The notes under the pieces are model-generated. The model searched no databases. It worked only from the letters and a program-made list of their open reading frames with translations, and was not told where the DNA came from. A stretch of DNA of 64,000 nt from an uncultured Acidobacteriota bacterium (lineage in GTDB: Bacteria; Acidobacteriota; Thermoanaerobaculia; Multivoradales; UBA5704): the NCBI GenBank assembly GCA_963799925.1, contig CAWCYZ010000004.1, forward strand, positions 903,445 to 967,444. Direction: 5' to 3'. Below are positions 4,693-23,667 of the stretch, piece after piece. The translations under genes and the position numbers were made by a program. The stretch's first letter is position 1. Each line of letters begins with the position of its first letter.

Positions 4693-5163
4693 CTACCTCG
4701 CCTTTCCGGCGAGCGCGGGCTGCTCGACGGCGAACGACGCGGCGGGCTCGCGGCGGGCGTCGGTCTGCCGGGCCTGGTACTGTTCGTCGCTGACCTTCTC
4801 CATCCAGTCCACGGCCTTGCCGGCGAGCCGTTCCTGAATCGCGATGTGCGTCATGGCGGTGGTTGCCGTGGCACCGTGCCAATGCTTCTCCCCCGGCGGG
4901 AACCAGATCACGTCCCCGGGCCGGATCTCCTCGACCGGCCCGCCCCAGCGCTGCGCCAGACCGCCGCCAGCCGTCACGATCAGGGTCTGGCCCAGCGGGT
5001 GGGTGTGCCATGCCGTCCGGGCGCTCGGCTCGAACGTGACGCTCGCCCCGGCCACCCGTGCCGGATCGGGCGCCTGGAACAGAGGGTCGATGCGTACGGT
5101 GCCGGTGAAGTACTCGGCCGGTCCTCCGCCGGAGGGTTGGGAGCCGCTTCGCTTGATGTCCAT
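4693..5163 (-). CDS. cupin-domain protein
   Basis: 156-aa ORF with the cupin motifs [17 protein letters not shown] and [17 protein letters not shown]. It lies 6 nt upstream of the ADH start on the same strand. Confidence 0.8.
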
Positions 5164-7121: not shown

Positions 7122-8351
7122 TTACCCTGGAACCTTCCCGGCCGGCGCCGCGGCCGCTCCGTCCGCGTAGCGCGCCAGGATGCGCTTGGCGACGGCGGTC
7201 TTGTGCACCTCGTCGGGGCCGTCGTAGATGCGCGCCCCGCGCTCGTGCCGCCACCAGAAGGCGAGCGGCGTCTCGTCGGTGAGGCCGAGGGCGCCGTGGA
7301 CCTGGATGGCGCGGTCGAGCACCCGCTCGAGCACGCCCGCCACCTGGAACTTGATGAGCGCGACGTCGTCGCGCGCCGCCGCGGCGCCCTCGCGGTCGAT
7401 CCGCCAGGCGGTCCGCAGGACCAGCAGGCGCGCGGCGTCGATCTCGGCGCGGCTCTCGGCGACCCAGAGCTGCACCGCCTGGCGGCCGGCGAGCGGCTCG
7501 CCCGGCGCCAGCTCGCGCCCGGCCGCCCGCGCGCACATCAGGTCGAAGGCGCGCTCGCAGATGCCGATCCAGCGCATCGCGTGGTGGATGCGCCCCGGCC
7601 CCAGCCGCTCCTGGGCGAGGGTGAAGCCGGCGCCCTCGTCGCCCAGGCGGTCCGCCGCCGGCACGCGGACGCCCGTGAAGCGCACCTCGGCGTGGCTCGC
7701 CCAGCCGGCGCCCGCCTCGCCCATCACCGGCAGGTTGCGGACGAGCTGGAAGCCCGGCGCGTCCGTCGGCACCACGAGGAGGCTGGCGCGGCGGTGGCGC
7801 GGCGCGTCGCGGTCGGTCACCGCCATCACCACGGCGAAGGCGGCGCCGTCCGCCCCCGAGGTGAACCACTTGTGGCCGTCGAGGACGTAGCCGTCCCCCT
7901 CGCGCCGCGCGGTGGTCTCGAGCCAGGCGGGGTTCGAGCCGGCCCGCTCCGGCTCGGTCATCGCGAAGCAGCTCCGCACCCGCCCGGCAGCGAGCGGCCG
8001 CAGCCAGCGCTCCTGCTGCGCCGTGCTGCCGTGGTGCAGGAGCACCTCCATGTTGCCGGCATCGGGCGCCTGGCAGTTCGCGGCGAGGTGGCCGAGGATC
8101 GAGCGGCCGAGCTCCTCGCCGACCGCCGCGAAGGCGAGGAGCGAGAGCCCGCCGCCGCCGTACTCGGCCGGCAGATGGGGGACGAGGAGCCCCAGCGCCC
8201 GCGCCCGCTCGCGGAGGCGCGGCAGCTCGCTCTCGACCGCGCCGTAGCCCGCGGCGAGGAAGGCGCGCTCGACCGGCAGGACCTCGACGGCGACGAAGTC
8301 GCGCGCCACGGCGGCGAGCTGGCGCGCCCGCGGCTCCGGCTCGAAGTCCAT
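7122..8351 (-). CDS. acyl-CoA dehydrogenase
   Basis: 409-aa ORF with typical ACAD composition and segments (CFAMTEPERAGSNPA, GHKWFTSGADGA, IYDGPDEVHKTAVAKRIL). Confidence 0.85.
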   Translation of the reverse strand: MDFEPEPRARQLAAVARDFVAVEVLPVERAFLAAGYGAVESELPRLRERARALGLLVPHLPAEYGGGGLSLLAFAAVGEELGRSILGHLAANCQAPDAGNMEVLLHHGSTAQQERWLRPLAAGRVRSCFAMTEPERAGSNPAWLETTARREGDGYVLDGHKWFTSGADGAAFAVVMAVTDRDAPRHRRASLLVVPTDAPGFQLVRNLPVMGEAGAGWASHAEVRFTGVRVPAADRLGDEGAGFTLAQERLGPGRIHHAMRWIGICERAFDLMCARAAGRELAPGEPLAGRQAVQLWVAESRAEIDAARLLVLRTAWRIDREGAAAARDDVALIKFQVAGVLERVLDRAIQVHGALGLTDETPLAFWWRHERGARIYDGPDEVHKTAVAKRILARYADGAAAAPAGKVPG

Positions 8352-9351: not shown

Positions 9352-10998
9352 ATGACGGAGGATCTCCGCCGGGCGGCCGCCGCCGCGGCGACCGCCGGCG
9401 CGCCCGCCGAGCGCCCGGCGCGGGCCGCCGCGACGCTGGTCGCCGCCGGCATCCTGCTGTCGCGGCTCTCCGGCTTCGTCCGCCAGCGGGTGTTCGCCCA
9501 CTACTTCGGGACGAGCGACGCCGGCGACGTCTTCTCGGCGGCGCTGCGCATCCCCAACCTGCTGCAGAACCTCTTCGGCGAGGGGGTGCTCTCGGCCTCG
9601 TTCATCCCCGTCTACGCCGCGCTCCTCGGCCAGGGCAAGCGCGAGGAGGCGGGGCGGGTGGCGGGGGTGGTCGCCGCGGTGCTCTCGCTTGTCGTCGGCG
9701 CGCTGGTGCTCTTGGGCGTCGTCGCGACGCCGTGGCTGATCCCTCTCATCGCGGCCGGATTTCCCGCCGCCAAGCAGGCCGCGACCGTCCGCGTCGTCCG
9801 CATCCTCTTCCCCGGCGTCGGCCTCCTCGTGCTCTCCGCCTGGTGCCTGGGGATCCTCAACAGCCATCGCCGCTTCTTCCTCTCCTACGCCGCGCCGGTG
9901 GTGTGGAGCGGGGCGATGATCGCCGCCATGCTCGCCTTCGGCCACGGCGCGCCGCTCTACCGGCTGGCGGCGATCGTGGCGGCAGCCGCGACCATCGGCT
10001 CGGCTCTCCAGATCGCCGTGCAGCTGCCGACCGTGCTCCGCCTGGTGCCGCGCCTGCGCCTGTCGCTCGACACCCGCTCGGGCGCCGTGCGGGAGATCTA
10101 CCGCAACTTCGTGCCGGTCGTGATGTCGCGCGGCGTGGTGCAGATCAGCGCCTACGTCGACGGCTGGCTGGCGAGCTTCCTGGGCACCGGCGCGGTCGTC
10201 GGCTTCGGCTACGCGCAGCTCCTCTACACCCTGCCGGTCTCCCTCTTCGGGATGTCGGTCTCGGCCTCGGAGCTGCCGGAGATGTCGCGCGCCCAGGGCG
10301 ACCCGGCGGCGGTCGCCGACTACCTGCGCCGGCGGCTCGGCTCCGGCCTGCGGCGGATCGCCTTCCTCGTCGTCCCCTCGGCGGTCGCCTTCCTCGCCCT
10401 GGGCGACGTGCTCGCCGCCGCCGTCTACCAGACCGGCAGGTTCCGCCACCAGGACGCGCTCTACGTCTGGGCGATCCTCGCCGGCTCGGGCGTCGGCCTC
10501 CTCGCCTCGACTCTCGGGCGCCTCTACTCCTCGACCTTCTACGCCCTGCGCGACACCCGGACGCCGCTGCGCTACGCGGTGGTGCGGGTCGCCCTCACCA
10601 CCGGCCTCGGCTGGTTCTGCGCCCTGGTGCTGCCCGGCCTCCTGGGCCTCGACGCCCGCTGGGGGGCCGCCGGCCTCACCGCCTCGGCCGGCGTCGCCGG
10701 CTGGGTCGAGTTCGCGCTCCTCGCCCGCGGCCTCGGCCGCCGCATCGGCCGCACCGACCTCCCCGCCTCCTTCATCGCTCGCCTGTGGCTCGCCGGGGGC
10801 CTCGCCGCCGCCCTCGCCTGGGGGGCGAAGCTCGGGATCGGCGCCCTGGGTACCACGGCTGCGGCGGGCGCCGCCCATCCGCTGCTCGCCGGCGCCGTCA
10901 TCCTCGGCCTCTACGGCGCCGCCTACTTCGCCGCCGCCGCGGCGCTCGGCCTCCCCGAGGCGCGGGCGATGCTCTCCCGGCTGCCCGGCCGGCGCTAG
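9352..10998 (+). CDS. murJ: lipid II flippase MurJ (MviN family)
   Basis: 548-aa polytopic ORF with the characteristic N-terminus LLSRLSGFVRQRVFAHYFGTSDAGDVFSAALRIPNLLQNLFGEGVLSASFIPVYA. Confidence 0.85.
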   Translation: MTEDLRRAAAAAATAGAPAERPARAAATLVAAGILLSRLSGFVRQRVFAHYFGTSDAGDVFSAALRIPNLLQNLFGEGVLSASFIPVYAALLGQGKREEAGRVAGVVAAVLSLVVGALVLLGVVATPWLIPLIAAGFPAAKQAATVRVVRILFPGVGLLVLSAWCLGILNSHRRFFLSYAAPVVWSGAMIAAMLAFGHGAPLYRLAAIVAAAATIGSALQIAVQLPTVLRLVPRLRLSLDTRSGAVREIYRNFVPVVMSRGVVQISAYVDGWLASFLGTGAVVGFGYAQLLYTLPVSLFGMSVSASELPEMSRAQGDPAAVADYLRRRLGSGLRRIAFLVVPSAVAFLALGDVLAAAVYQTGRFRHQDALYVWAILAGSGVGLLASTLGRLYSSTFYALRDTRTPLRYAVVRVALTTGLGWFCALVLPGLLGLDARWGAAGLTASAGVAGWVEFALLARGLGRRIGRTDLPASFIARLWLAGGLAAALAWGAKLGIGALGTTAAAGAAHPLLAGAVILGLYGAAYFAAAAALGLPEARAMLSRLPGRR

Positions 10999-11011: not shown

Positions 11012-13465
11012 CTACTCGAGCCGCTCGAGGGCGGCGCGGGGGTCGATGCGCGCCGCGCGGGCGGCGGGGAGGTAGCTCGCGAAGAGCATCGCCAGGACGA
11101 GGACGAGGGGCGCCGCGGCGAAGGCGAGCGGGTCGCGCGGGCTCACCTCGAAGAGGACCGACGCCATCCAGCCGCTCGCCGCGGCGGCCGCGGCGAGGCC
11201 CGCGGCGAGGCCGCAGGCGGTCGTCAGGAGCGCCTCGCGGAGGATCATCCAGCGGATCCGCCGGCCGTCGGCCCCCATCGCCATGCGGATGCCGATCTCG
11301 GCGGTCCGCAGCCCCACGAGGTAGGAGACGAAGCCGTAGAGCCCGACGGCGCCGAGGGCGAGGGCGATGGCGGTCGCGAGGAGGACCATCAGGGCCGAGA
11401 ACTCGAAGCGCGAGCGCGCCCGGTGGAGCAGCTCGGCGAGCGTGCGGACGTTCGCCACCGGCAGGTCCGGCGCCACCGCGGCGAGCTCGCGGCGGATGGC
11501 CGGGGCGAGCGATTCCGGCGGCACGCGGGTGCGCACGGCGAGGGTCATCTGGCGCGCCGTCCACTCGCCGGGCTTCATCGCCAGCACCGGGTAGTAGACC
11601 TGCTCCTCGGCCGTGGTGTCGGTCAGCTCGCGCTGGCGGATGTTGCCGGCGACGCCGACGATCGTGTACCAGGGATCGCCGGCGCGGGGGGTCTTCCTCT
11701 CCGGCCGCAGCCGGTGGCCGAGCGGGCTCTGGTGCGGCCAGTAGTGCCGCGCCACGGCCTCGCTCACCACCGCCGCGCCGGTGCGCCGCTCGGCGTCGGC
11801 GGGCTCGAGGCCGCGCCCGGCGAGGAGCGGGATGCCCATCGCCCGGAGGTAGCCCGCGGTGACGTACTGGTAGCCGAGGACCGCCGGCAGGGCCTTCGGC
11901 GGGCGCGGGAAGTCGGCGAAGCCGTGGCCGGCGACCGCGTCGCGGGTGAGCGGCAGGGTGGAGGTGGCGCCCGCCGCCGCCACGCCCGGCAGGGCGGCGA
12001 TCCGCGCCAGCGCCGCCGCCAGGCAGCGCGCCACCGAGATGTCGTCCGGGTACTCGGCCGGCGGCAGGGCGAGCTCGAGGGTGAGGACGTCCCGGGCGTC
12101 GAAGCCCGGATCGACCTGCGCCAGGCGGCGGAAGCTCTCGACCATCAGGCTGGCGCCGATCAGGAGCACCACGGCGAGCGCCATCTGCAGGCCGACCAGC
12201 ACCTGGCGCAGGCGCTGCCGGCGGCGCCCGGCGCTCATCGCCCGCCCGCCCGCCTTGAGCTCGGCGCCGAGCTCCACCCGCCGGCTGGCGCGCCAGGCTG
12301 GGGCGAGGCCGAAGAGCAGGCTGGTCAGCAGGGCGAGGGCGACGGCGAAGGCGAGGGTGCGGCCGTCGAGGGCGGGGGGCGCGAGCCGCTGGAGGGCGGG
12401 GGGGCGCAGGGCGGCGAGCAGGCGCAGGCCGCCCCAGGCGAGGGCGATGCCCGCCGCTCCCGCCGCGAGGCCGATGAGGAGGCTCTCGGCGAGCACGCCG
12501 CCGAGGAGCGCCCGGCGCGGCGCCCCCAGCGCGGCGTGGATCGCGAGCTCGCGCTGGCGCCCCTCGCCGCGCACGATGAGGAGGTTGGCGACGTTGGCGC
12601 AGGCGATGGCGAGGATGCAGCCGACGGCGCCGAGCAGGACCCACAGCACCGCGCCGAGGTCGCCCACCTGCTGGTCGCGCAGCGAGCGCACGATCGGCGC
12701 GAAGCGGGCGTTGACGAGGAGCGTCGCGACGGCGCTCGGCACCCAGCGGTCGAGGGAGCGGGTCAGCCGCTCGAGGTCGGCCGCCGCGGCCTGCTGCGAG
12801 GCGCCCGGCGCCAGGCGACCGACGGCGTCGTCGTTCAGCAGGGCGAGCGAGGTCCGCGCCGGATCGAGCCGCCGCGGCAGCCAGAGGGCGGTGTCGGGCT
12901 GCGGGAAGGCGAAGCCCGCGGGCATGACGCCGATCACCTCGGTGGGCACGCCGTCGATCCTGAGCAGCCGGCCGAGCGCCCGCCGGCCGCCCAGCTCGCG
13001 GGCGAGGTCGCCGCCGAGCACCGCGACCGCCGGTCCGCCCGGCCGCTCGTCGGCCGGCGCGAACCAGCGCCCGAGGCGCGGCGGCACCCCGAGCACGGCG
13101 GCGAGCGAGGCCGTCGCGGTGGCCGCCGGCACCCGCCGCGGCGGCGCGGCCGCGGCGCCGCCGAGGTTGACGTCGCCGGCGCGGTAGAGGGCGAGGTCGG
13201 CCAGGGCGCGCCGGTGGCCGCGGTAGAGGAGATAGGTGCCGTCCGACAGCCCCACCTCGGGGAGGCCGAGGCCGGGGACGGTGTGGCCGATCCAGACCAG
13301 GCGCTCCGCCCGCGGATAGGGGAGCGGCCGCAGGAGCACGGCGTCGAGGAGGCTGAAGACGGCGGTGTCGGCGCCGATCCCCACCGCCAGGGTGAGGACG
13401 CAGAGCGCCGTGAAGCCGGGCGCCCGCGCCAGGCCGCGGGCGGCGCGGCGGATCAGCCGCGGCAC
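11012..13465 (-). CDS. ADOP-family duplicated FtsX/MacB-like ABC permease
   Basis: 817-aa ORF. It has an N-terminal TM helix (FTALCVLTLAVGIGADTAVFSLLDAVLLRPLPY), two MacB-type periplasmic regions and two FtsX 4-helix bundles (CANVANLLIVRGEGRQRELAIHAALGA... and SYLVGLRTAEIGIRMAMGA...). Confidence 0.85.
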   Translation of the reverse strand: MPRLIRRAARGLARAPGFTALCVLTLAVGIGADTAVFSLLDAVLLRPLPYPRAERLVWIGHTVPGLGLPEVGLSDGTYLLYRGHRRALADLALYRAGDVNLGGAAAAPPRRVPAATATASLAAVLGVPPRLGRWFAPADERPGGPAVAVLGGDLARELGGRRALGRLLRIDGVPTEVIGVMPAGFAFPQPDTALWLPRRLDPARTSLALLNDDAVGRLAPGASQQAAAADLERLTRSLDRWVPSAVATLLVNARFAPIVRSLRDQQVGDLGAVLWVLLGAVGCILAIACANVANLLIVRGEGRQRELAIHAALGAPRRALLGGVLAESLLIGLAAGAAGIALAWGGLRLLAALRPPALQRLAPPALDGRTLAFAVALALLTSLLFGLAPAWRASRRVELGAELKAGGRAMSAGRRRQRLRQVLVGLQMALAVVLLIGASLMVESFRRLAQVDPGFDARDVLTLELALPPAEYPDDISVARCLAAALARIAALPGVAAAGATSTLPLTRDAVAGHGFADFPRPPKALPAVLGYQYVTAGYLRAMGIPLLAGRGLEPADAERRTGAAVVSEAVARHYWPHQSPLGHRLRPERKTPRAGDPWYTIVGVAGNIRQRELTDTTAEEQVYYPVLAMKPGEWTARQMTLAVRTRVPPESLAPAIRRELAAVAPDLPVANVRTLAELLHRARSRFEFSALMVLLATAIALALGAVGLYGFVSYLVGLRTAEIGIRMAMGADGRRIRWMILREALLTTACGLAAGLAAAAAASGWMASVLFEVSPRDPLAFAAAPLVLVLAMLFASYLPAARAARIDPRAALERLE

Positions 13466-13619
13466 GCGCGCCCCCGCGGCGCCAGGCGATCGCGGCGGGC
13501 GCCGATCGGAAGGTAGCGGGCTCGGTCCCGGCTCCCCATGATCTCCACTATACGGCGTCGGCGCGGGCCGCGGGAGCCCGTCCGGCGTCCCCGCCCTCGG
13601 TGCCGGGTCCGCCGGTGCC

Positions 13620-13705
13620 GCCCATGCCGGGCGAGCTTGCCTGCGTTAATCATCTCAAGCTAAAGTTCTGCTTCGCTGTCCCGACGGCAAGGGACCTTTT
13701 CGAGG
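13620..13705. repeat. direct repeat A (~86 bp) bracketing the lower-G+C island
   Basis: gcccatgccgggcgagcttgcctgcgttaatcatctcaagctaaagttctgcttcgctgtcccgacggcaagggaccttttcgagg recurs at 18156..18243 with only a few mismatches, in the same orientation. Confidence 0.9.
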
Positions 13706-13825
13706 TGTCCGCGAAACCGGGGCAAGGCCAGACAGTCCTCCTGGGGAACCTCGCTCCTCATTCTTTGCGCCCGCGAAGAGCACTTGTTCCCTCGCGGATT
13801 GGATCCCTGGCGGTTGATCGTGTCC

Positions 13826-14134
13826 TCACTTAAGCCCGACTGTGCAGCATTGCGCCGTGATGTTCTGAACACTGACGCCGACTCCTGTCACTACTTCAGT
13901 CGCCTGATTGCATGGGGTGAGGGGGATGAGACCAGGAGTTCCGTAGCGTGCGTCGACAGACCGACAATTCGTGAGCGTCACGACTGAAGGAACCTTTTGC
14001 TGTTCCAGAGCAGTAACCTTCGCCTCAAGCACTTCGACCCGCTTTTCAAGCGACGAATCTGAGCGAGGATTTGCGGTAAGCATCGCTGCTGCCAGTACCG
14101 CGATCAGCAGAATCATCCACTTAGCAGAACGCAT
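13826..14134 (-). CDS. small secreted protein, unknown function
   Basis: Within ORF 13826..14146. MRSAKWMILLIAVLAAAMLTA is a signal-peptide-like N-terminus, followed by a short coiled-coil-like KRVEVLEAKVTALEQQK and a Cys-containing tail. It lies in the lower-G+C sequence. Confidence 0.5.
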   Translation of the reverse strand: MRSAKWMILLIAVLAAAMLTANPRSDSSLEKRVEVLEAKVTALEQQKVPSVVTLTNCRSVDARYGTPGLIPLTPCNQATEVVTGVGVSVQNITAQCCTVGLK

Positions 14135-14202
14135 GTTACCCTCCAATCCTTAGAGCACTGGCAGCCTCAATTGGTTAACCAGCGTCTTCCTTAGGCGGGT
14201 AT

Positions 14203-15252
14203 CTAGGTTCCTGGTGCGATTGTAGTCCCCTCTGGGTTTGCATTGGCATGTTCCGCTACTGTCACCGGTTGCTGGGCCATCCCTAATGCGCCTTTTGAGG
14301 ATGCAGACGCACTGGTCGCAAGGAACCTTAAATACTCTGAAACAGTGTTAGCCGTAGCAACCATCCCAGGCGCAGCGGGAGCGTTGAAGGCTTTCAACCA
14401 CCGGAGTAACCTGGGCATTGCAAGATCGGTCACTGCTTGAAAAGCCGATCGAACCTGCCGATGAGCTGGCAGAGCAAGTTTGTAAAAAATAAACCAGACT
14501 ATAAGGCCTCCTGCCAAGCCCCACCAGTCGAAGCTCGCAGGCGGGGTGAGATGAATGAAGACCTTCCCAGTCAAAGCACCTGCGGCCCTGCCAAACAGCG
14601 AGCACAGAGCGACGACGGCAACCAGGGCTCCAGTCGCCGATGTTAGGACTAGGCTCTCGGCGAAAGCCACTTTTTCCTCGTACTCCTTACGAGCTGCATC
14701 GGGAGCCAAGATTAAGAGATGGAACCAGAAGAAGAGTCCGTCGATGCCATAGCGAGTCTCTGGATAGCTCTCGTAGCCGTCTATGATGTTGCCGAGGATT
14801 GTCGGCCTATCGACAACATATGTTGGCCGTCCATTTCTCAGCTTGACAGGGAAGTCTTTCAAGAAGCCAGTTAACCTGTCTGCCTTATTCTTTTCCTTCT
14901 CCGAAAATTGCTCATAGGTTCGGTCGTTGCCCTTGGCGTCCGTATAGAGTGAGTTCAGCTTCTCTCGGGCTGTCTTTTTCCTGTGCGCGTTAAGTTTCAA
15001 AGCAGGCCACGTCAACCAAGAGAACCTAAACCCCTCGTAGACATAGAAAATAGGAAGTATCGAGCTGCTGATCAATAAGCCCAAAAAGGCCGCTTCAACC
15101 AACAGTACGATAAGCTCAGTGACACCGTAAGAACGACTTACTGACAGCAGCCGCTCGCCAAAGTAGGGGTGAAAGTAAAGCACGGCCACTGCGCCAGGAA
15201 GGACGACCCGACGCAGAAGGTTGCTGCTCAGATTGTCACTCACATCTTCCAC
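14203..15252 (-). CDS. multi-pass membrane protein, unknown function (island cargo)
   Basis: 349-aa ORF with ordinary amino-acid composition in the lower-G+C DNA. It has at least 5 hydrophobic helices and a soluble loop containing PTILGNIIDGYESYPETRYGIDGLFFWFHLLILAP. I do not recognise a family. Confidence 0.7.
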   Translation of the reverse strand: MEDVSDNLSSNLLRRVVLPGAVAVLYFHPYFGERLLSVSRSYGVTELIVLLVEAAFLGLLISSSILPIFYVYEGFRFSWLTWPALKLNAHRKKTAREKLNSLYTDAKGNDRTYEQFSEKEKNKADRLTGFLKDFPVKLRNGRPTYVVDRPTILGNIIDGYESYPETRYGIDGLFFWFHLLILAPDAARKEYEEKVAFAESLVLTSATGALVAVVALCSLFGRAAGALTGKVFIHLTPPASFDWWGLAGGLIVWFIFYKLALPAHRQVRSAFQAVTDLAMPRLLRWLKAFNAPAAPGMVATANTVSEYLRFLATSASASSKGALGMAQQPVTVAEHANANPEGTTIAPGT

Positions 15253-15257
15253 GACTT

Positions 15258-15443
15258 TTAGTCGGGTAAGATTCCTTTAGTGACGGGCGATTTCTCTGGG
15301 TGCTTCGGTCCCTCTAGCCAATCCACATCTGATTTCCGATTGATATCGAAGTCGAGCAGATCGTCCTTACTAGCGTTACCATCAAGGTTTACAAAGTTGC
15401 CGCGATCCTCCGACTCGTTCTCACTTCCCTCGCGCTCGCGCAT
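15258..15443 (-). CDS. small acidic protein (61 aa), unknown function
   Basis: ORF 15258..15443 ends 5 nt before the start of the 349-aa membrane protein on the same strand. The sequence is highly acidic (MREREGSENESEDRGNFVNLDGNASKDDLLDFDINRKSDVDWLEG...). Confidence 0.45.
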   Translation of the reverse strand: MREREGSENESEDRGNFVNLDGNASKDDLLDFDINRKSDVDWLEGPKHPEKSPVTKGILPD

Positions 15444-15590
15444 TTGCTTCCTCCCTTTGGGCCATAGGTCCTGGCGTTTGTTTGAAACCGGTCAACCTCT
15501 TTTCCACAGAGCAAAGTACAGGAACCTGGAGGCCGGTGTCCAGTAACCCTATGTCAAAATGCGCATGCGTCCCGACGCCGCCGGAACCTG

Positions 15591-16092
15591 TCAACGACTT
15601 TGAGACAGTTCCTTCGTTGCAATTAAGGAATCCTGCCCCGGCGGCGGCTTTGGGGGATTGATCCACGCGGCTTCCGGTGGTGCTTTGGGATGAGGCGGCC
15701 CCTGGGGAAAGCGTTCGGAGTGTTTCGCATAGGCTTCAGCTAAGGCCTTGGCTCGATGCTCGAGCACCTGCTGAACTCGGCCATAGTGGACAGCCTCGGG
15801 CGTCAGCAAGGCGAGTCCAGAATGGTGATGTTGGGTGTTGTACCCGGCGAAGAACGATTGGCAGAAGGCTCGGGCATCTTGGAGCGAGCCGAAGCGATGC
15901 GGGAAGGTGGGGCAGTACTTGAGCGTCTTGGAGTGAGCCTCGGAGTAGGGGTTGTCATCGCTGGTATGAGGTCGGCTGTGGCTCTTGAGAACGCCCAGAT
16001 TGGCCAGCAGCAGCGCCAAATCCTTTGGAGGTCATGACGGCGCCGCGATCGGCATGGATGGTGAGCTGGCGGCGCGGGACCTGCTGTCGTTG
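15591..16092 (-). pseudogene. IS3 transposase OrfB, C-terminal part (rve/DDE domain), separated from the rest by the IS200 insertion
   Basis: ORF 15591..16019 gives ALLLANLGVLKSHSRPHTSDDNPYSEAHSKTLKYCPTFPHRFGSLQDARAFCQSFFAGYNTQHHHSGL. The upstream 16020..16092 reads QLTIHADRGAVMTSKG in another frame, which implies a 1-nt frameshift. Confidence 0.8.
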
Positions 16093-16712
16093 AATTAAAA
16101 AGCAATCCCCCGGCTTTGCCGGGGGACTCCTAAAGTTTGACGTTTCCGGGAACAGGCGACAGAACTCCCTCTCGTGAACCGCTCAAGGTCTTCCGAGAGG
16201 GAGTCAGATGGACAACAACGAAGCCTAAGCCACACGAGATGGGAGTGCAAGTTCCACGTAGTGTTCATCCCGAAGTACCGTCGCAGGGCGCTGTACGCCG
16301 AGCTACGGCAACACCTTGGGGAGGTATTCCGAGAACTCGCGGCGCAGAGGCAGAGCCGCATCGAAGAAGGACACCTGCTCAGCGACCATGTCCATATGCT
16401 GATCTCGATTCCCCCGAAGTACGCGGTGGCGCAGGTGGTGGGCTACCTCAAGGGGAAGAGCGCGATCCATGTCGCCAGGTCGTACGTCGGGAAGCGGCGA
16501 GATTTCCGGGGCCAGCACTTCTGGGCGCGAGGGTACTTCGTTTCAACCGTAGGTCGAGACGAGCAAGCAGTGCGCCAGTACATCCAGCAGCAGGAGGTCG
16601 AAGACCGGAGGCTCGATCAGTTGCAACTTCTATCGTAGCCGCCTTTAGGCGGCTCAGGATTCAAACCGCTTTGAGCGGTTCACATCTTTCAAGCCTCCGG
16701 CTTTGCCGGAGG
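16093..16712 (+). mobile_element. IS200/IS605-family element inserted in the IS3 transposase gene
   Basis: It carries a Y1 HUH transposase gene flanked by subterminal hairpins: cccccggctttgccggggg at the left; gccgcctttaggcggc, aaccgctttgagcggtt and cctccggctttgccggagg at the right. IS3 coding similarity stops and resumes exactly at its edges. Confidence 0.8.
16174..16638 (+). CDS. tnpA: IS200/IS605-family transposase TnpA (Y1 HUH)
   Basis: 154-aa ORF with SLSHTRWECKFHVVFIPKYRRRALY, the HUH motif HVHMLISIPPKY, and the catalytic Tyr region ARGYFVSTVG. Confidence 0.9.
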   Translation: MNRSRSSERESDGQQRSLSHTRWECKFHVVFIPKYRRRALYAELRQHLGEVFRELAAQRQSRIEEGHLLSDHVHMLISIPPKYAVAQVVGYLKGKSAIHVARSYVGKRRDFRGQHFWARGYFVSTVGRDEQAVRQYIQQQEVEDRRLDQLQLLS

Positions 16713-17771
16713 TATCTGACTGGTTTCGGCCAGGAGCCGGTTGGCCAGGCTCTGGGCCTCTCGCTCGGCCAGCAGCCAACCGACGACGTAGCGGCTGAAG
16801 ATGTCGAGCACGACGTAGAGGCTGTAGTAGAGCCCCTTGGCTGGGCCGCGCAGCTTGGTGATATCCCAGGACCAGACCTGGTTGGGTGCCGTCGCCAGCA
16901 GCTCAGGCTTGCTGTACGCGGGATGCCGGAGCTGGTTTCTGCGCTCACGGACTTCTTGTTGACTCTGCAAGAGGCGGTACATTGTGCGTTCCGAGCAGAG
17001 ATAGGTGGCCTCCTCGAGAAGAGCGGCGTAGACCTGAGCTGGAGCGGCATCGACAAAGCGATTGGAGTGCAGCAGATCCAGGACCTGCTGGCGCTCCGCC
17101 TCGGAAAGCCTGCGCGGTGATGCCGGGCGGGGGCGAGTCACCGCCGGCGGTTTGGCTGGGTTGCGCCGCCGGCGGTAGAACGAGGAGCGGGACACATCCA
17201 GAGCTCGGCAGGCCGTCTGGAAGCCCACGGTGCTTGCCAGCTGCTCGACCCCATCCATTAGCCGGTCCTCTCCGGGTCGGGTGCGGTCAGAGTGATCCCC
17301 AGGATCTCGGAGACTTTTTTTTTGGATTTCGATGACGGTTTCGGCTTGTTTCAGCTTGCGCCGCAGACGCTCATTCTCCCGCTCGAGCTCCTTGGCTCGG
17401 TGGTAGAGCGGCGTTGCGGGATCGGGCTTACGACCGCGCTGGCGAGGCGCGCTTTCTACCAAGCCTCCTTCGTCGCGCAGCTTGCGCCACTTGCTCAGAT
17501 GAGAGCCGTAGAGCCCTTCCCGGCGCAGTAGCGCCCCGATATCCGCCGAGCTGCGACACTCCTCGGCTTGTTTGACGATCTCCAGCTTGTAGGCGACCGT
17601 AAACCGCCGCCGTTGCGCCTTGGGCTCCACCTCGGGATTGACCGGCCGCAGGGCCAACACTTCGATCGAACGCGTGGCGGCGGGGCGAGTTCCGGTCGCC
17701 CTCCGGGCTCCCTCCACTCCCCCCGCCGCCCCTCTCCCGTCCTGCCAATGGCTTGGCTTACTTGCTGACAT
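16713..17771 (-). CDS. IS3 transposase, OrfA (HTH) fused in frame to the N-terminal part of OrfB
   Basis: ORF 16689..17771 gives RRRFTVAYKLEIVKQAEE...LLRREGLYGSHLSKWRKL...leucine-zipper-like ELERENERLRRKLKQAETVIEIQKK, then ACRALDVSRSSFYRRR...NQVWSWDITKL...YLYVVLDIFSRYVVGW. The last ~8 codons read into the IS200 end. Confidence 0.85.
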
Positions 17772-17838
17772 CGAGCATTGTCCCCTTCTCGCCCTTCCCT
17801 ATTTACCTAGGGTACTTCTGTCTCACCGTACATTGGCA

Positions 17839-18082
17839 GAGTGGGGCCGTCCCGGCGCCCCATCATCTCGGTGTGGAACCGGCTCTTCGGCCTGCCGGAG
17901 CGGCTCTCCATCACCCCCCAGGAGCGGGTGGGGCCCGCGAAGTACCTGTCCGGCTCGAAACGGGGCGCGGCCCCGGCGAAGCTCTCCGGCGTGAGAGTAC
18001 GGCAGCCGGCGCTCAGGAGGGTGACCGCCGCCAGGGCGGCGCAGGCGAGCGAATGAACTGCTGGGCGAGCCGTAATTTTCAT
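17839..18082 (-). pseudogene. lipoprotein gene (DUF3833-like) truncated by the IS3 insertion
   Basis: ORF 17807..18082 gives MKITARPAVHSLACAALAAVTLLSAGC (a lipobox), then FEPDRYFAGPTRSWGVMESRSGRPKSRFHTEMMG. The reading frame runs into the IS3 terminus at ~17838. The DNA is high-G+C, like the host. Confidence 0.6.
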
Positions 18083-18155
18083 GATCCCACCTTGTCCGAG
18101 GGTCGGAAGCGCGAGCCTGGTCCGGCCCGGCGACCTCTCCCTGCTGCAAGGCGCT

Positions 18156-18243
18156 GCCCATGCCGGGCGAGCTTGCCTGCGTTAATCATCTCAAACTAAA
18201 GTTCTGCTTCGCTGTCCCGACGGCACGGGACCTTTCTCGGAGG
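18156..18243. repeat. direct repeat B (~88 bp), partner of 13620..13705
   Basis: gcccatgccgggcgagcttgcctgcgttaatcatctcaaactaaagttctgcttcgctgtcccgacggcacgggacctttctcggagg. It ends 5 nt before the GTG start of the glycosyltransferase gene. Confidence 0.9.
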
Positions 18244-18247
18244 CGAA

Positions 18248-19474
18248 GTGGCGACCATCGCGGTTCTCTGTGACTTTGAAGAGGGACACTTCTTCACCAG
18301 CTTCAAGCTCGCCAAGGAGCTGCGAGCGCGCGGGCACGGGGTCCATTACCTCGGGCCGGCGAGCACCGAGACTTTGGTGCGGGGGCAGGGCTTCGAGCTG
18401 GTGCCGATCTTCGAGCAGCTCCTGGGCGGCATCGGCAGCTCCTCGCAGGCGCAGGCGCTCACCTCCGGGCCCGAGCTCTTCGGCGAGCTCATCCATGGCG
18501 AATCGCTCGACGGGGCGATGCGCCGCCTGGCGCCCGACCTGGTCCTGATGCTGTCGCTCTTCTATCCCGAGGCCCTGGCCGTCCACTTCCGGTACCGCGT
18601 CCCCATCGTCCTGTGGCAGACCTTCGCCCGCGCCGCGCGGCGGACCCGCGCCGAGCTCGTCACGGGCAAGATCGCCGAGCGCCTGATGAACCTCAAGGCG
18701 TCGGACCTCGACGCGGTGATCCAGGCGGCGACCGCCGCGGGGTACCGGTTCCGCTCCTTCAAGGACCTGGCGGCGCCGGTCCTGCGGATGCCCGAGCTCG
18801 CCGTCATGCCCCGCGCCCTCGAGCTGCCGGACGTGCTGGACGACCCGAACGTCTTCTACGTCGGCACCGGGATCGACCTCGTCCGCCGCGAGGAGCCGTT
18901 CCCGTGGGGTGAGATCGCCGGCGGCCGCTACCTGGTCTACTGCTCGCTGGGGAGCCAGTGCGATCTCGAGCCCGAGACGGCGCGCCGGTTCTTCCACGCG
19001 GTCCTCGGCGCGGCGGCGGCCCATCCGGAATGGCAGCTCATCCTCTCGGTGGGCCGGGGCTGCGATCCCGCCGAGCTGCCGCCGGCGCCGGCCAACCTCC
19101 ATCTGAGCCGCTGGGTGCCGCAGCTCGCCGTCCTCGAGCGCGCCGATCTCATGGTCACGCATGGTGGCGCCGGGACGGTCAAGGAGTGCATCCTGCTCGG
19201 GGTGCCGATGGTGGTGCTGCCGTTGATGCGCGACCAGTTCGGGATGGCCCGGCGCGTCGTCCACCACCGCCTCGGCATCGCCGGCAGCCTGGCCGAGATC
19301 ACCGCCGAAGCGCTGAGCTCCCTGATCGCCGAGGCGGCGGCGGACGGCTCGCTCCCGGCGCGGGTCGAAGCGATGGGGCAGCTCTGCCGCGAGGAGGACC
19401 GGTCGAGCGTCGGCGTCGACGTCATCGAGGCGGCCCTGGCCGGCGTCCCCGCCCTGTCGAGCGGGAGCGCCTGA
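18248..19474 (+). CDS. GT1-family UDP-glycosyltransferase (MGT/macrolide-glycosyltransferase-like)
   Basis: 408-aa ORF. The N-terminus is IAVLCDFEEGHFFTSFKLAKELRARGHGVHYLG and the C-terminal nucleotide-sugar motif is THGGAGTVKECILLGVPMVVLPLMRDQFGMARRV. Confidence 0.85.
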   Translation: MATIAVLCDFEEGHFFTSFKLAKELRARGHGVHYLGPASTETLVRGQGFELVPIFEQLLGGIGSSSQAQALTSGPELFGELIHGESLDGAMRRLAPDLVLMLSLFYPEALAVHFRYRVPIVLWQTFARAARRTRAELVTGKIAERLMNLKASDLDAVIQAATAAGYRFRSFKDLAAPVLRMPELAVMPRALELPDVLDDPNVFYVGTGIDLVRREEPFPWGEIAGGRYLVYCSLGSQCDLEPETARRFFHAVLGAAAAHPEWQLILSVGRGCDPAELPPAPANLHLSRWVPQLAVLERADLMVTHGGAGTVKECILLGVPMVVLPLMRDQFGMARRVVHHRLGIAGSLAEITAEALSSLIAEAAADGSLPARVEAMGQLCREEDRSSVGVDVIEAALAGVPALSSGSA

Positions 19475-19564: not shown

Positions 19565-20374
19565 ATGGACGAGCAACAAAGCGTATTGAGAGAGATCCAG
19601 GACAAGGTGCAGCAGATCGTCACCTTCCTGGCCAAGCTGGAACGCGTCGGCAACAACCTGACGATGTTCAGCATCATCTCCGCGGGTCTCGCCGCACTGC
19701 TGACCGCTCTGGCGGCGGCCTTCGGCTTCCACGCCGCCAGCTCGGCGTCCACCCCTTGGAGGATTCTTCTCGGCGTCGCCACCGTGCTCTCGGGCGGCGC
19801 GTCGATGGCGACCAATTTGTACAAATCCCGCGATATCTCGACCAAGCTTTCCAAGGCTCAAGGCTGCAACGCGAAGCTCCAAGCGATCGAGCGGCAGCTC
19901 AGGTCGAATCTCATCTCTCCGGCGGAGGCCATCAATCAGTTCAATGCCGCCCTCGAGAGCATTCCATTCGTTCGGGAGGATCCCCGGCCCAATCTCGATG
20001 TCGTCGATGGCAGGATCGACAAACCGGCTCCCCAGGAGGCGGTCGAGGCCGGTTTCACCTGTTCGGGAGTGGCGAGCGGGCCGAGCACGTCCCTTTGGCT
20101 GGCTGTCGAGGTCGGCAAGAGCATCTGGCCGAAAAAGGCGGTTTACGTGAACAAGGATGGATCGTGGAGCCGAGAGGTCTTCGAACAGGGGATCGTCGCC
20201 GAGTTCGACCTCTCGCTCTGGGCCGCCGACGAACGCGGCGATCGCTATATACGGGATTGGTTCAAGCGGGGCGACGCCAAGCGCGACTATCCCGAGCTGC
20301 AGGGAACGCCCGGCATGGTACGGCTCCACCGCGTGAGCGGCCTGCGCCTCAAGAAGCGCGATCAGCCCGGCTGA
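19565..20374 (+). CDS. 2-TM protein with an unknown C-terminal domain (SLATT-like topology, unverified)
   Basis: 269-aa ORF. It has an N-terminal helix, two adjacent TM helices (MFSIISAGLAALLTALAAAFGF; ILLGVATVLSGGASMATNLY), another helix, then ~130 aa of beta-rich sequence. G+C is noticeably lower than in its neighbours. Confidence 0.65.
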   Translation: MDEQQSVLREIQDKVQQIVTFLAKLERVGNNLTMFSIISAGLAALLTALAAAFGFHAASSASTPWRILLGVATVLSGGASMATNLYKSRDISTKLSKAQGCNAKLQAIERQLRSNLISPAEAINQFNAALESIPFVREDPRPNLDVVDGRIDKPAPQEAVEAGFTCSGVASGPSTSLWLAVEVGKSIWPKKAVYVNKDGSWSREVFEQGIVAEFDLSLWAADERGDRYIRDWFKRGDAKRDYPELQGTPGMVRLHRVSGLRLKKRDQPG

Positions 20375-20428: not shown

Positions 20429-21214
20429 TCAGACCATCAGGTCGCCGCCGTTGATGTCGAGGGATGCACCGGTGATGTAACCGGCCTCCTCGGAGGCGAG
20501 GAAGGCGATCAGGTCGGCGACCTCGGCCGCCCTGCCGAGCCGCTGGACGGGGAAGGAGCGCGCGTGGGCCGCCAGCTCCTCGGGCGTCGCGTGCTCCCGC
20601 GTCAGCTCGGTGTCGATGAGCCCCGGGCAGACGGCGTTGACCGTGATGCCGTAGGGCCCGAGCTCCTTGGCGGCGGCGCGGGTGAGCCCGAGGAGACCCG
20701 CCTTGGAGGCGGTGTAGTGGGCGCCGCCCAGCGTGCTCACGCTCTTGCCCGCCGTCGACGAGAGGTTGACGACGCGGCCGTAGCGGTTGGCCTTCATCGC
20801 CGGCACCGCCGCCTGCGTGCAGAGGAAGGCGGCGGTCAAGTTGACGTCGAGGGCGCGCCGCCACTCCTCCTCGGAGATCTGCTCGAAGCGCGTCGAGTAG
20901 GCGGCGGCCGCGTTGTTGACCAGGATGTCCAACCGGCCGAAGCGGTCGAGCGCCCGCTCGACGAGCGCGCGGACGGTCGGCGAGCCGGCGACGTCGCCGG
21001 GGAGCACGAGCACACGGTCGCCGAAAGGCTCGAGGTCGCGCTCGAGCGCCGCCGCCTGCTCGGGACGGCGGACGTTGAGCGCCACGCCGGCCCCGCCGGC
21101 CAGCAGCCGCTCGGCCGTCGCCCGCCCGAGGCCGCGGGCGGCGCCGGTGATCAGCGCGACGCGTCCGGAGAGCTCGTTGGGCATTCGAGGGGCCTTGAGG
21201 GACAGGGGTTTCAT
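20429..21214 (-). CDS. short-chain dehydrogenase/reductase (FabG-like)
   Basis: 261-aa ORF with ALITGAARGLGRA (TGxxxGxG), NNAA, and YTASKAGLLGLTR (YxxxK). Confidence 0.85.
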   Translation of the reverse strand: MKPLSLKAPRMPNELSGRVALITGAARGLGRATAERLLAGGAGVALNVRRPEQAAALERDLEPFGDRVLVLPGDVAGSPTVRALVERALDRFGRLDILVNNAAAAYSTRFEQISEEEWRRALDVNLTAAFLCTQAAVPAMKANRYGRVVNLSSTAGKSVSTLGGAHYTASKAGLLGLTRAAAKELGPYGITVNAVCPGLIDTELTREHATPEELAAHARSFPVQRLGRAAEVADLIAFLASEEAGYITGASLDINGGDLMV

Positions 21215-21242
21215 CGTGCCGCCCGGCGGCGTCCGGCGCCGC

Positions 21243-23667
21243 TCAGGGCGTCCGCAGCGTCGTCGCCGGGTCGATGCGGGTCGCCTTCTGGGCCGGCAGC
21301 AGGCAGGCGACGAAGGCGATGCCGCCGAGGATCACCGCGGCGGCGGCGAAGTGGAGCGGGTCGACGCCCTCGACCCCGAAGAGCTGGCTCTCGAGCGCCC
21401 GGCCGGCGAAGTACGAGCCGATCGTCCCCAGCGCGAGCCCGGGCACGATCCAGCGGGCGCCCAGCCGCAGCACGTTCTCGAGCACCTGGCCGCGGCTCGC
21501 TCCCAGCGCCATGCGCACGCCGATCTCGCGGCGGCGCAGGAAGATGGAGTGCGCCACCACGCCGTAGATCCCCAGCAGGCAGAGCAGCAGGGCGAGGGCG
21601 GAGAAGCCGGAGAACAGCCCGGTCGTCAGGCGGCGCCGCGCGGTGGCGGTCGAGAGCATGGCCGCCATCGTCGTCATCTCGGGCAGCGGCTCGCCGGGGT
21701 CGATGGCGCTCACCTCGCGGCGCAGAGACTCCGCCACGCTCGCCATCGGCAGGCTGGTGCGGATCGCCAGGTTCATGAAGTCGGGAGGCGACTGCTCGAC
21801 GCCCACCTGGTGCTGGAACAGGAAGACCGTCGGCTCGACGCCGTCCTCGAGCGGATCCTGCTGGATGTCCTCGACGACCCCGACGATCTCGAGCGGCGAC
21901 TTGCCGCTGCGCAGCCGCAGGTGCTTGCCGAGGGGGCTCTCGGCGGGGAAGTAGAGCTTCTGCAGCGAGCGGTTGATGATCGCCGTCAGCGGGGCGTCGG
22001 GGGCGATCTGCGGATCGAAGTCGTGCCCGGCCAGGAAGGGGGTTTTGAGGGTCCGGAAGTACCCGGCGCCGGTGACCAGGCGCAGGACCAGCGGCTGCTT
22101 GTCCGGGGAGCGGCGCCTGGCCTTCGACGGTCAGCTTGGTGTGCGGCGCGCCGGCGGTCGGCGGGTATTCGATCAAGGCCGCCGACTGCACCCCGGGGAG
22201 CCGGCGGACGCGCTCCTCGAGCCCCTCGAAGAAGACCCGCCGCGCCGCCACCCCCGGGTACTTGGCGTCGGGGAGCGTGATCTGCACGAACAGCAGGTCG
22301 TCGGGGGCGAAGCCCAGGTCGAGGGCGTTGACCCGCTGCAGGCTGCGCAGCAGGAGACCGGCGGCGGAGAGCAGCACCAGCGCGAGGGCGATCTGGAGCG
22401 TCACCAGGAGCCCCTGGCCCCAATGGGCGCGCCGTCCCCCGGTGGCGCCGCGCTCCCCCTCGGCGAGGAAGCTCTTGGGGTCGGTGCGCAGGGTCTGCCA
22501 GGCGGGGGCGAGGCCGGCGAGGACGCCGGCCAGCGCGGTGACGAGGAGGGCGAAGGCGAGGGCGCGGCCGGAGAGGTCGACCTCGCCGATGCGCGGCAGG
22601 TCGGCGGGGTTGGCGGCGACCAGCAGCCGCAGCCCCCAGTAGGCGAGGAGCACTCCCAGCGCGCCGCCGGCGAAGGCGATCAGCAGGCTCTCGCGCAGGG
22701 TCTGGCCGAAGATGTGGCGCCGCCCGGCTCCGAGCGCGACGCGGGCGGCGATCTCGCGCCGCCGCGACAGGCCGTCGGCGAGCAGGAGGTTGGCGACGTC
22801 GGCGCAGGCGATCAGCAGCACCAGGCCGACGGCGGCGAGGAGCACCAGGAGCGTCGTGCGGGTGGTCCCCACCAGGAGCTCGTTCAAGGGCACGGCGGCG
22901 AGCGGATAGGTGGTGTCGAGCTGGCCCGGCAGGTCCGCCTTGTAGGCCGCCCCGATGCGGTCGAGGTCGCGCCGCGCGGCGGCGAGCGAGGCGCCGGGCC
23001 TCAGGCGCGCCACCACCTGCAGGTAGCCCGCCCCCAGCTCCAGCGCCTTGCGGCTCAGGAAGTTGGCCTCGTCCGGGCGCGGCAGCCAGAGCTGGACGCC
23101 GCGGAACGGGAAGCGCAGGACGTCCGGCAGGACGCCGACGACGGTCGTCGGGAGGCCCTCGATCTGCAGGCTCCTGCCGAGGATCGACCGGTCGCCGCCG
23201 AAGCGCTGCCGCCAGTAGCCATAGGAGAGGAGCGCCACGTTGCCGCCGCCCCGCCTCTGCTCGTCGGCGGTGAAGGTGCGCCCGAGGAGCGGGCGCACCG
23301 CCCAGACGTCGAAGAAGGCGCCGCTCACCCGCACCCCGGAGAGCTCCTCCGGCCGCTCCCGCTCGGTCAATCCGAAATCGCTCTGGTAGTACGCGGCGAC
23401 GGCCGCGGTCTCGCGGCTCTCGGCCGCCAGCGCCTGGAACTTCGGCCAGGAGACCTCCTTGAGGTCCTTCTGGCCGGTCACCGCGGCGCCGATCTCGATC
23501 AGCCGGTCGGCGTCGCGGTACGGCAGGGGGCGCAGGGCGACGGTGTCGAGCAGGCTGAAGATCGCCGTGCTGGCGCCGATGCCGAGGGCCAGGGTGAGGA
23601 CGGCTGTCGCGGTCAGGCCGGGGCGCCTCGCGAGCGCGCGGGTGCTCTGGCCGATTTCGCGCAGCAT
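21243..23667 (-). CDS. second ADOP-family duplicated FtsX permease, with a frameshift near 22100
   Basis: The N-terminal ~520 aa of ORF 21211..23667 are protein-like (CADVANLLLADGLSRRREIAARVALGA...). The C-terminal FtsX half continues in another frame (ORF 21243..21806: ...HSIFLRRREIGVRMALGASRGQV...). The junction is at cttgtccggggagcggcgcc, ~22095-22110. Confidence 0.8.

Follow-up and report, generated by a model that had tools for sequence, protein, structure and literature searches.

An IS-scrambled 4.4-kb insert between two copies of a putative glycosyltransferase leader in an uncultured Acidobacteriota bacterium

Some genomic islands restore the 3′ end of a tRNA gene, and e14 and phage 21, which insert into the E. 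coli gene icd at its 3′ end, carry a substitute target end and encode an integrase. Among insertion sequences (ISs), IS3 elements make target duplications of 3-5 bp and IS200/IS605 elements make none. Cis-mobilizable elements (CIMEs) have lost their integration genes and kept attL and attR (PMC5704250). Direct duplications can also arise with no integrase at all: in one experimental study, a circular molecule that inserted through a short homology by a single crossover became flanked by direct duplications of 109-950 bp, and such insertions were seen alongside homology-facilitated illegitimate recombination (PMC3240628). Here we compare these systems with a locus in a 64,000-nucleotide stretch (“the window”; positions are counted from its first letter) of contig CAWCYZ010000004.1 from the uncultured Acidobacteriota assembly GCA_963799925.1, in which two copies (A and B) of a direct repeat bracket 4.44 kb of DNA (13706-18149) directly upstream of a glycosyltransferase (GT) gene.

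The insert and its repeats are most likely an ordinary recombination scar and not a new kind of mobile element. The bracketed DNA is compositionally foreign and mosaic, and the repeat leads directly into the start of the GT gene. The features of the locus, with the G+C content at third codon positions (GC3) where it applies, are as follows.

11012-13465, minus strand: ADOP1, an ADOP-family duplicated permease on the left flank (TIGR03434 ADOP, E 1e-234; GC3 0.988)
13466-13613, no strand: spacer upstream of ADOP1 (G+C 0.80)
13614-13705, plus strand: repeat copy A, 92 nt, orphan copy of the putative GT leader at the far junction of the insert
13706-15599: low-G+C foreign block, 1.9 kb, with three minus-strand genes (G+C 0.54; GC3 0.56-0.58)
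13826-14134 or 13826-14146, minus strand: orf102/106, signal-peptide-like
14203-15252, minus strand: orf349, a predicted helical membrane protein
15258-15443, minus strand: orf61, a gene of the low-G+C block
15600-17827, minus strand: IS3-family element (NF033516; DDE transposase with rve (PF00665) and N-terminal HTH_Tnp_1 (PF01527) domains)
16087-16715, plus strand: IS200/IS605-family element (PF01797, E 3e-36; NF033573, E 6e-41), nested in the IS3 transposase gene
17828-18082, minus strand: 5′ fragment of a DUF3833 lipoprotein gene, 85 codons (PF12915 model positions 3-62 of 163; GC3 0.86)
18083-18149, no strand: spacer from the DUF3833 start codon to copy B, 67 nt (G+C 0.70)
18150-18243, plus strand: repeat copy B, 94 nt, the putative leader in service upstream of GT
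18248-19474, plus strand: GT, MGT family (GT1) (TIGR01426, E 1.5e-43, below the curated cut-off; UDPGT and EryCIII_C domains)

Aligned without gaps, the two repeats span 13614-13699 and 18150-18235, with 82 of 86 positions identical, and a gapped alignment lengthens them to 13614-13705 and 18150-18243 (88/94 identical, E 8e-38 by blastn). An initial annotation of this DNA had described near-identical direct repeats at these borders, and they are real; the ends that it gave (13705 and 18243) were exact, whereas its starts (13620 and 18156) lay 6 nt too far to the right. The six differences between the copies are found at 13616, 13619, 13659, and 13690 and as two 1-nt gaps in copy A, both of which fall inside the Shine-Dalgarno sequence. 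Most of them are placed at the repeat ends and in a hairpin loop, and the exact-match blocks within the 92-nt repeat are 39, 30, and 9 nt long. A 24-nt core of the repeat occurs exactly twice in the window, with no occurrence in 100 shuffles, and a sensitive blastn search of the window found no diverged third copy. A 20-nt core was scanned against one genome per GTDB species, JGI metagenomes, and IMG/VR, and in these genome, metagenome, and viral contig collections only chance 20-21-mers inside unrelated DNA were encountered. The possibility raised earlier that the repeat is a common dispersed one is not borne out: there are two copies in 64 kb and none in the three public collections scanned, and the repeat ends are not inverted repeats, which is unlike a dispersed repeat or a miniature inverted-repeat transposable element.

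Copy B continues into GGAGG (18239-18243), which is followed by 4 nt and then by the GT start codon, GTG, at 18248. The placement of this repeat just 5′ of the GT start was therefore right, although the gap is 4 nt instead of 5 nt. As copy B leads directly into the Shine-Dalgarno sequence and start codon of GT, the repeat appears to be the upstream leader of this gene, and its layout suggests that it comprises the 5′ leader together with a putative promoter. From left to right, the repeat contains a GC-rich hairpin, an AT-rich patch, a small hairpin (GTCCCG...CGGGAC), and the ribosome-binding site. The AT-rich patch, which is the only such patch in the spacer, consists of TTGCCT, an 18-nt spacer, and TAAAGT; in copy A, the two hexamers are located at 13637-13642 and 13661-13666 and the small hairpin at 13678-13695. 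The Shine-Dalgarno sequence of copy A is degraded (TCGAGG) with two bases lost, whereas the GGAGG of copy B is intact. The GT gene itself has native composition (GC3 0.944), and the position of its start codon is common to relatives, with equivalents in the relatives L002, L004, and L006. To the right of copy A, the search for a relic of the GT 5′ end was not significant (389/500 shuffles), and there is no plausible plus-strand gene. The initial annotation had also suggested a test for a structured leader RNA by folding in both orientations and by covariance models. Such an RNA is unsupported, as no Rfam model matched the repeat at the gathering threshold or at E up to 10, and its folding energy in both orientations was no better than that of shuffles (z -0.85 to +0.57).

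In relatives, too, the DNA upstream of GT contains an AT-rich patch about as far from the start. Homology of the repeat to the upstream regions of L001, L002, L004, L006, and L007, in which the GT proteins are 66-75% identical, was considered from a by-eye likeness; local-alignment scores were no better than those of shuffles or random window pieces, and the claim was therefore dropped. A separate observation in these relatives is an AT-rich quasi-palindrome common to L002 (~9905-9945), L004 (~4820-4860), and L006 (~6630-6670), which is located 60-95 nt before the GT start and reads CAGAGTTTTTAG-N10-CTAAAGACTCTG in L006. It is a candidate operator of this GT family and is not significantly similar to the repeat of the window.

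The foreign composition of the bracketed DNA is borne out by windowed G+C, GC3, and tetranucleotides. The G+C content is stepped, with 0.72-0.82 in the flanks, 0.54 at 13706-15599, 0.62 over IS3 and IS200 (15600-17827), and 0.70 in each of the DUF3833 fragment and its upstream spacer. The native genes (MurJ, ADOP1, GT, and SDR) have a GC3 of 0.94-0.99, and within the insert GC3 is 0.56-0.58 for the orphan genes, 0.66-0.74 for the IS genes, and 0.86 for the DUF3833 fragment. The tetranucleotide distance from the window background peaks at 0.80 at 14001-15500, compared to a median of 0.24. The lower-G+C island described at first is thus real as a compositional shift but is not one unit, being a stepped mosaic with a near-native right end.

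The count of two IS elements in the island also holds, although the elements are nested, with IS200/IS605 inside IS3, and not separate. Both share diagnostic transposase domains and end structures with the known IS3 and IS200/IS605 families. The ends of the IS3 element read TGAGACAG...CTGTCTCA, with TGAGACAG termini at 15600 and 17827 and the TG...CA ends of the IS3 type. The element has no target-site duplication, as its flanks are CTT on the left and CCG on the right, which indicates that the two flanks were originally non-contiguous and were joined secondarily by an IS-associated deletion or recombination. The IS200 tnpA (16174-16638), which encodes a Y1 (HUH) transposase, is intact (GC3 0.74), and the element has subterminal hairpins at 16103-16128 and 16690-16712; its boundaries were set by restoring the IS3 reading frame, in which ...AETSQ is directly followed by QVPRRQLTIHADRG. 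The IS3 transposase gene additionally carries a 1-nt frameshift at 16020-16025, between ...HADRGAVMTSKG and LALLLANLGV... (minus strand), so that IS3 has been inactivated twice, by the frameshift and by the IS200 insertion. No other IS3 or IS200 copy is present in the window, and one IS3 and one IS200 that are nested and do not flank the cargo do not form a composite transposon. Since IS3 makes duplications of 3-5 bp and IS200/IS605 makes none, neither element made the 92-nt repeats. The two elements are passengers and scramblers of the insert and not the cause of the repeats.

The DUF3833 gene is cut at the IS3 end, which abuts codon 85 exactly. The lipoprotein gene reported to start at 18082 is accordingly present but is only the first 85 codons of this gene. 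The 3′ two-thirds are absent from the window, which holds no other DUF3833 copy. An IS3 element without target-site duplication next to a gene whose 3′ part is gone shows a secondary IS-mediated rearrangement. The resulting chimeric 91-aa IS3/DUF3833 open reading frame (ORF) is also present in a Logan assembly.

Similarity between the two sides of the insert may continue to the left of the repeats. The right 77 nt of the ADOP1 spacer (13537-13613) show a weak collinear alignment with 18080-18149, which begins at the CAT of the DUF3833 start codon. In an unanchored test of these two segments, the score was reached by 27/2000 shuffles and 3/649 genomic windows. An anchored alignment has 49 identities in 83 columns and was reached by 0/1537 and 1/1313 composition-matched controls, with the anchor having been chosen post hoc. 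These alignments give moderate support to the left-side similarity. If it is real, the duplicated unit would be the entire divergent intergenic region, and identity would step sharply at 13614/18150, from ~60-70% on the left to 94% within the repeat. A duplication that was both recent and uniform could not have left such a step, which might instead stem from two homeologous copies in which the GT leader was conserved and the rest free of constraint. A small ORF in the same region (13453-13653, minus strand, 66 aa) overlaps the ADOP1 start by 13 nt and has an internal ATG at 13539 after GGAG; near copy B, the start region of DUF3833 contains a match to this ATG and its ribosome-binding site (CATGATC(T)CCAC).

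The locus was also compared with that of the closest relative, in which the GT (P0278) is 96% identical to that of the window, is the second member of its 90% cluster, and is encoded on a 34,449-nt JGI contig. The same contig encodes at least 90%-identical orthologues of the acyl-CoA dehydrogenase (7122-8351), MurJ (9352-10998), YgiQ (24634-26526), and PaaK-like (31507-32700) genes of the window. The contig is therefore syntenic across the locus (at least 25 kb). A comparison of lengths was uninformative, as the shared genes span 25.6 kb in the window and the relative's contig measures 34.4 kb. Among the proteins on record for this contig there is no counterpart of orf349, orf102, IS3, or orf269, which indicates that the cargo is lineage-specific. 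There is also no ADOP1 orthologue on this contig among the 120 matches listed, the best non-self match (76%) being located on another contig. As ADOP1 is also missing from the relative, the variable MurJ-GT interval may include ADOP1 (11012-18149). More distant relatives have GT in several different contexts.

Loci in two of the more distant relatives were considered as empty sites and rejected. In these relatives, L001 and L007, ADOP on the minus strand and GT on the plus strand are direct neighbours, but the spacers lack the repeat, and the ADOPs are paralogues, as they are 33-36% identical to that of the window compared to 69% for GT. The ADOP1 orthologues in L012 and L013 (73-76% identity) have other neighbours and no repeat. 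The divergent ADOP/GT neighbours (L001 7440-11293 and L007 6565-10324), in which ADOP is orthologous to neither ADOP of the window, could represent either a functional pairing that recurs or a chance arrangement in genomes with many ADOPs.

Taken as a class, recombination that inserted the DNA, whether driven by homology or by an integrase, probably left the repeats as its scar. Within this class, we tentatively favor a Campbell-type single crossover, through which the insert would have been secondarily acquired as mosaic DNA in the 5′ leader of GT. The incoming DNA would have brought its own leader copy, ~6% diverged and joined to part of a DUF3833 gene that came from a high-G+C relative, and one reciprocal crossover inside the leader would have integrated it. 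A single crossover of this type is bound to duplicate the shared segment, with one direct copy at either side of the insert. IS3 would then have rearranged or deleted interior DNA, and IS200 would have landed later within IS3. Copy B would still serve GT, and copy A would be an orphan at the far junction. The repeats, the foreign composition, the mosaic anatomy, and the lack of recombinase genes and of the cargo among the relative's recorded proteins are direct observations; our inferences are the donor, its entry through a crossover, the succession of events, and the function of the promoter. The structure is probably immobile now, although a clean deletion by recombination between the repeats, which share perfect blocks of 39 and 30 nt, could occur.

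Several observations agree with a single crossover in a shared leader. A homologous segment with exact blocks is duplicated at both sides of the insert, and host-like DNA, namely the DUF3833 fragment and the adjoining 67 nt, is contiguous with copy B. This near-native DNA resembles that of a related genome, as would be expected next to a carried-in leader. Two further points for this reading are that the homology stops at the Shine-Dalgarno sequence, at a distance of 4 nt from the GT start, and that copy A is followed by nothing resembling GT. The repeats differ by 6% despite an intact IS200 tnpA and an IS3 damaged by no more than the IS200 insertion and one frameshift, and copies that already differed when they met (homeologous copies) fit this better than an old in-place duplication. 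The nearest relative, in which GT is 4% different at the protein level, is about as diverged as the two repeats are from each other and thus favors homeologous copies as well. The failure to find an integrase or recombinase remnant or a tRNA gene supports a homology-driven event over an integrase-driven one. The relative's contig, on which the flanking genes are present and no cargo proteins are recorded, also speaks for this reading. The locus resembles the experimental Campbell-type insertions (PMC3240628) in having foreign DNA between a duplicated shared segment and a host-like insert end contiguous with the repeat, and it differs from them in that the shared segment is ~92 nt long and 6% diverged, and in that it would record a natural event that was later rearranged by ISs. 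Of the two readings offered by the initial annotation, duplication of a promoter/leader segment is the better option; for attL/attR, no integrase, remnant, or tRNA gene specific to such recombination was found.

Other observations weigh against the single crossover. Homologous recombination works poorly on a segment of only ~90 nt with 94% identity, and a random crossover or joining does not explain why the right edge of copy A should coincide with a point 4 nt from the start codon. Nor are the details of the identity step at 13614/18150 predicted. The relative without ADOP1 implies that the ancestral order may not have been ADOP1-leader-GT and that the repeats may have met otherwise. The order of events is reconstructed with neither an empty site nor a donor sequence. 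With respect to the leader itself, the putative promoter hexamers match 8 of 12 consensus positions, which is below the threshold of the promoter scanner and was not reported by it, and the similarity of the repeat to the GT upstream regions of distant relatives is not significant.

The main alternative is an integrase-driven route to the same arrangement. An integrative island with a replacement GT leader in its attP would have left the repeats as attL and attR and would later have lost its integrase in an IS3-mediated deletion. We regard this as unlikely. The remnant would be CIME-like and might be excisable by an integrase supplied in trans. The ~90-nt direct repeats do border compositionally foreign DNA as attL and attR would, the repeat coincides with a functional unit that begins shortly before the putative -35 element, includes the Shine-Dalgarno sequence, and ends 4 nt from the start codon, as if an element restored the expression of its target gene, and the IS3 element without target-site duplication shows that interior DNA was deleted. 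In e14 and phage 21, long imperfect direct repeats likewise derive from a carried copy of the target and the gene stays functional, but in those elements a 3′ coding end is restored and an integrase is encoded, whereas here a 5′ promoter/leader would be restored and no integrase is present. The likeness to a CIME (PMC5704250) lies in direct repeats that bracket foreign DNA without a recombination module and in the decay of the interior; unlike in a CIME, the target is not a tRNA gene or the 3′ end of a conserved gene, neither a cognate integrase nor a related element is known, and the att role of the repeats is putative. The observation made at first that the island has no integrase was confirmed by domain searches that covered the tested ORFs and, within the low-G+C block, five of six reading frames. 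These searches revealed no integrase, excisionase, Resolvase, Recombinase, or remnant of one, and the only rve domains in the tested ORFs were those of IS3. No tRNA or tmRNA target is present in the window. In addition, none of the viral, genome, and metagenome collections scanned contains the repeat core beyond chance matches, and accordingly no related element with such an attP is known, the cargo family stands alone without integrases in other genomes, and a near-native DUF3833 fragment beside copy B is unexpected for a low-G+C donor element. More doubtful still is an element that has the repeats as its att sites, is specific for the GT 5′ leader, and brings a replacement promoter/leader, with copy A firing antisense into the foreign genes; if true, such an element would be the mirror image, by analogy, of the restoration of tRNA 3′ ends by some islands.

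The repeats need not mark an insertion mechanism at all if two pre-existing leader copies were joined, one within a block consisting of ADOP1, its spacer, copy A, and the low-G+C and IS3 DNA, and the other in a native locus of DUF3833, spacer, copy B, and GT. Copy A would then be what is left of the region upstream of a further GT homologue. IS3 could have made the join through deletion or recombination, or the join could be due to homology-facilitated illegitimate recombination with its anchor in MurJ or close to it. This account is doubtful, to about the same degree as an integrase-driven origin. It would fit the relative that has MurJ and GT on one contig and no ADOP1 orthologue, the IS3 end located exactly at DUF3833 codon 85 with no target-site duplication, the intergenic homology that seemingly reaches the DUF3833 start codon with reduced identity, and the divergent ADOP and GT pairs in L001 and L007. 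However, the stop codons of MurJ and ADOP1 are 13 nt apart, which makes an unlikely breakpoint, and ADOP1 has fully native composition (GC3 0.99). There is also no GT relic after copy A and no second GT, DUF3833, or IS3 copy in the window, and the 94% identity of the repeats suggests a recent common origin instead of old paralogy. Selection for two copies of a functional regulatory module, either a promoter/operator or a leader RNA, is considerably less probable. Under this explanation, the transcript of copy A would be antisense to the foreign genes. The high identity inside the repeat and the much lower identity just outside it, the placement of most differences at the ends and in the hairpin loop, and the AT-rich patch upstream of GT in relatives would suit such a module, whereas the lack of any Rfam match, a folding energy no better than that of shuffles, the degraded Shine-Dalgarno sequence of copy A with no plausible plus-strand gene behind it, and a total of two known copies in the window and the collections scanned do not. 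An assembly artefact, in the form of a chimeric join or a mis-assembled repeat in a metagenome-derived contig, is the least probable explanation. In its favor, the DNA comes from an uncultured source, as part of a 2.06-Mb contig, and a Logan contig ends within 5 nt of the junction of copy A and the insert. Nevertheless, six differences between the copies show that neither is a collapsed or duplicated read artefact, and the separate Logan assembly, which possibly derives from reads of the same sample, includes orf349 and the genes around it as well as orf269 and the chimeric IS3/DUF3833 ORF.

The Logan contig in question (2,369 nt, ~13701-16069, sample ERR11571141) encodes orf61, orf349, and orf102 in the same gene order as the window. 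It stops 4-5 nt from the junction of copy A and the insert, where a k=31 graph of a single genome would be expected to reach ~13629. This end could reflect heterogeneity of the sample at the junction or a mere drop in coverage, and as the other end of the contig does not follow the logic of the repeats either, we place little weight on the hint of heterogeneity.

The genes of the low-G+C block encode proteins without recognizable domains. No match was found for orf102/106, orf349, or orf61 in Pfam, NCBIfam, PADLOC, or PHROG, and no domain remnants were detected in five of the six reading frames of the block, the sixth being the frame of orf349, which was tested as an ORF. A search of a plasmid database with the block gave no match. 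There are ~45 homologues of orf349, mostly in Acidobacteria, which form a family without Pfam annotation and share the alignment motifs YVYEGFR, RPTxLGNIIxxYExYxxTRYGxDG, FAESLVLTS, and LPAHR; in other genomes, orf349 is a stand-alone gene with no integrase nearby. Its AlphaFold model predicts with confidence an all-helical membrane fold (pLDDT 88.7, pTM 0.79). No PDB sequence matched orf349, and Foldseek comparisons of the model with PDB and BFVD gave no significant match. The top structural matches, which are weak and not significant, include ZorA, MotA, ExbB, and TolQ.

Two further genes near the locus are of note. Directly 3′ of GT, orf269 (19565-20374, plus strand; G+C 0.63, GC3 0.81) has weak matches to SLATT_1 (E 2e-3) and PADLOC LeoBC (E 1.3e-3). 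It has no boundary repeats and no counterpart of at least 90% identity on record for the relative's contig, and it could constitute another small variable segment, perhaps with a role in conflict. The other gene encodes ADOP2, a further permease of the ADOP family (21211-23667, minus strand), whose translation makes no sense beyond a frameshift near residue 520; homologues align to it in two frames (23667-22150 and 22109-21252), which represents either a pseudogene or a sequencing error.

The locus is a small genomic islet that ISs have scrambled and that bears a probable recombination scar. Features of this kind are known, and the locus leaves the current understanding of mobile DNA unchanged; its value is that of an annotated case and a pointer for comparison. 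If the single crossover is true, it would be a clean natural example, from a poorly studied lineage of the Acidobacteriota that is Thermoanaerobaculia-like by the names of its homologues, of foreign DNA entering through a short shared non-coding sequence without a dedicated integrase, with the duplicated leader keeping the downstream GT expressed. The MurJ-GT interval is a strain-variable spot that varies by more than the 4.4-kb insert, and it carries a conserved and structurally unmatched membrane-protein family, represented by orf349, which seemingly travels as a stand-alone gene.

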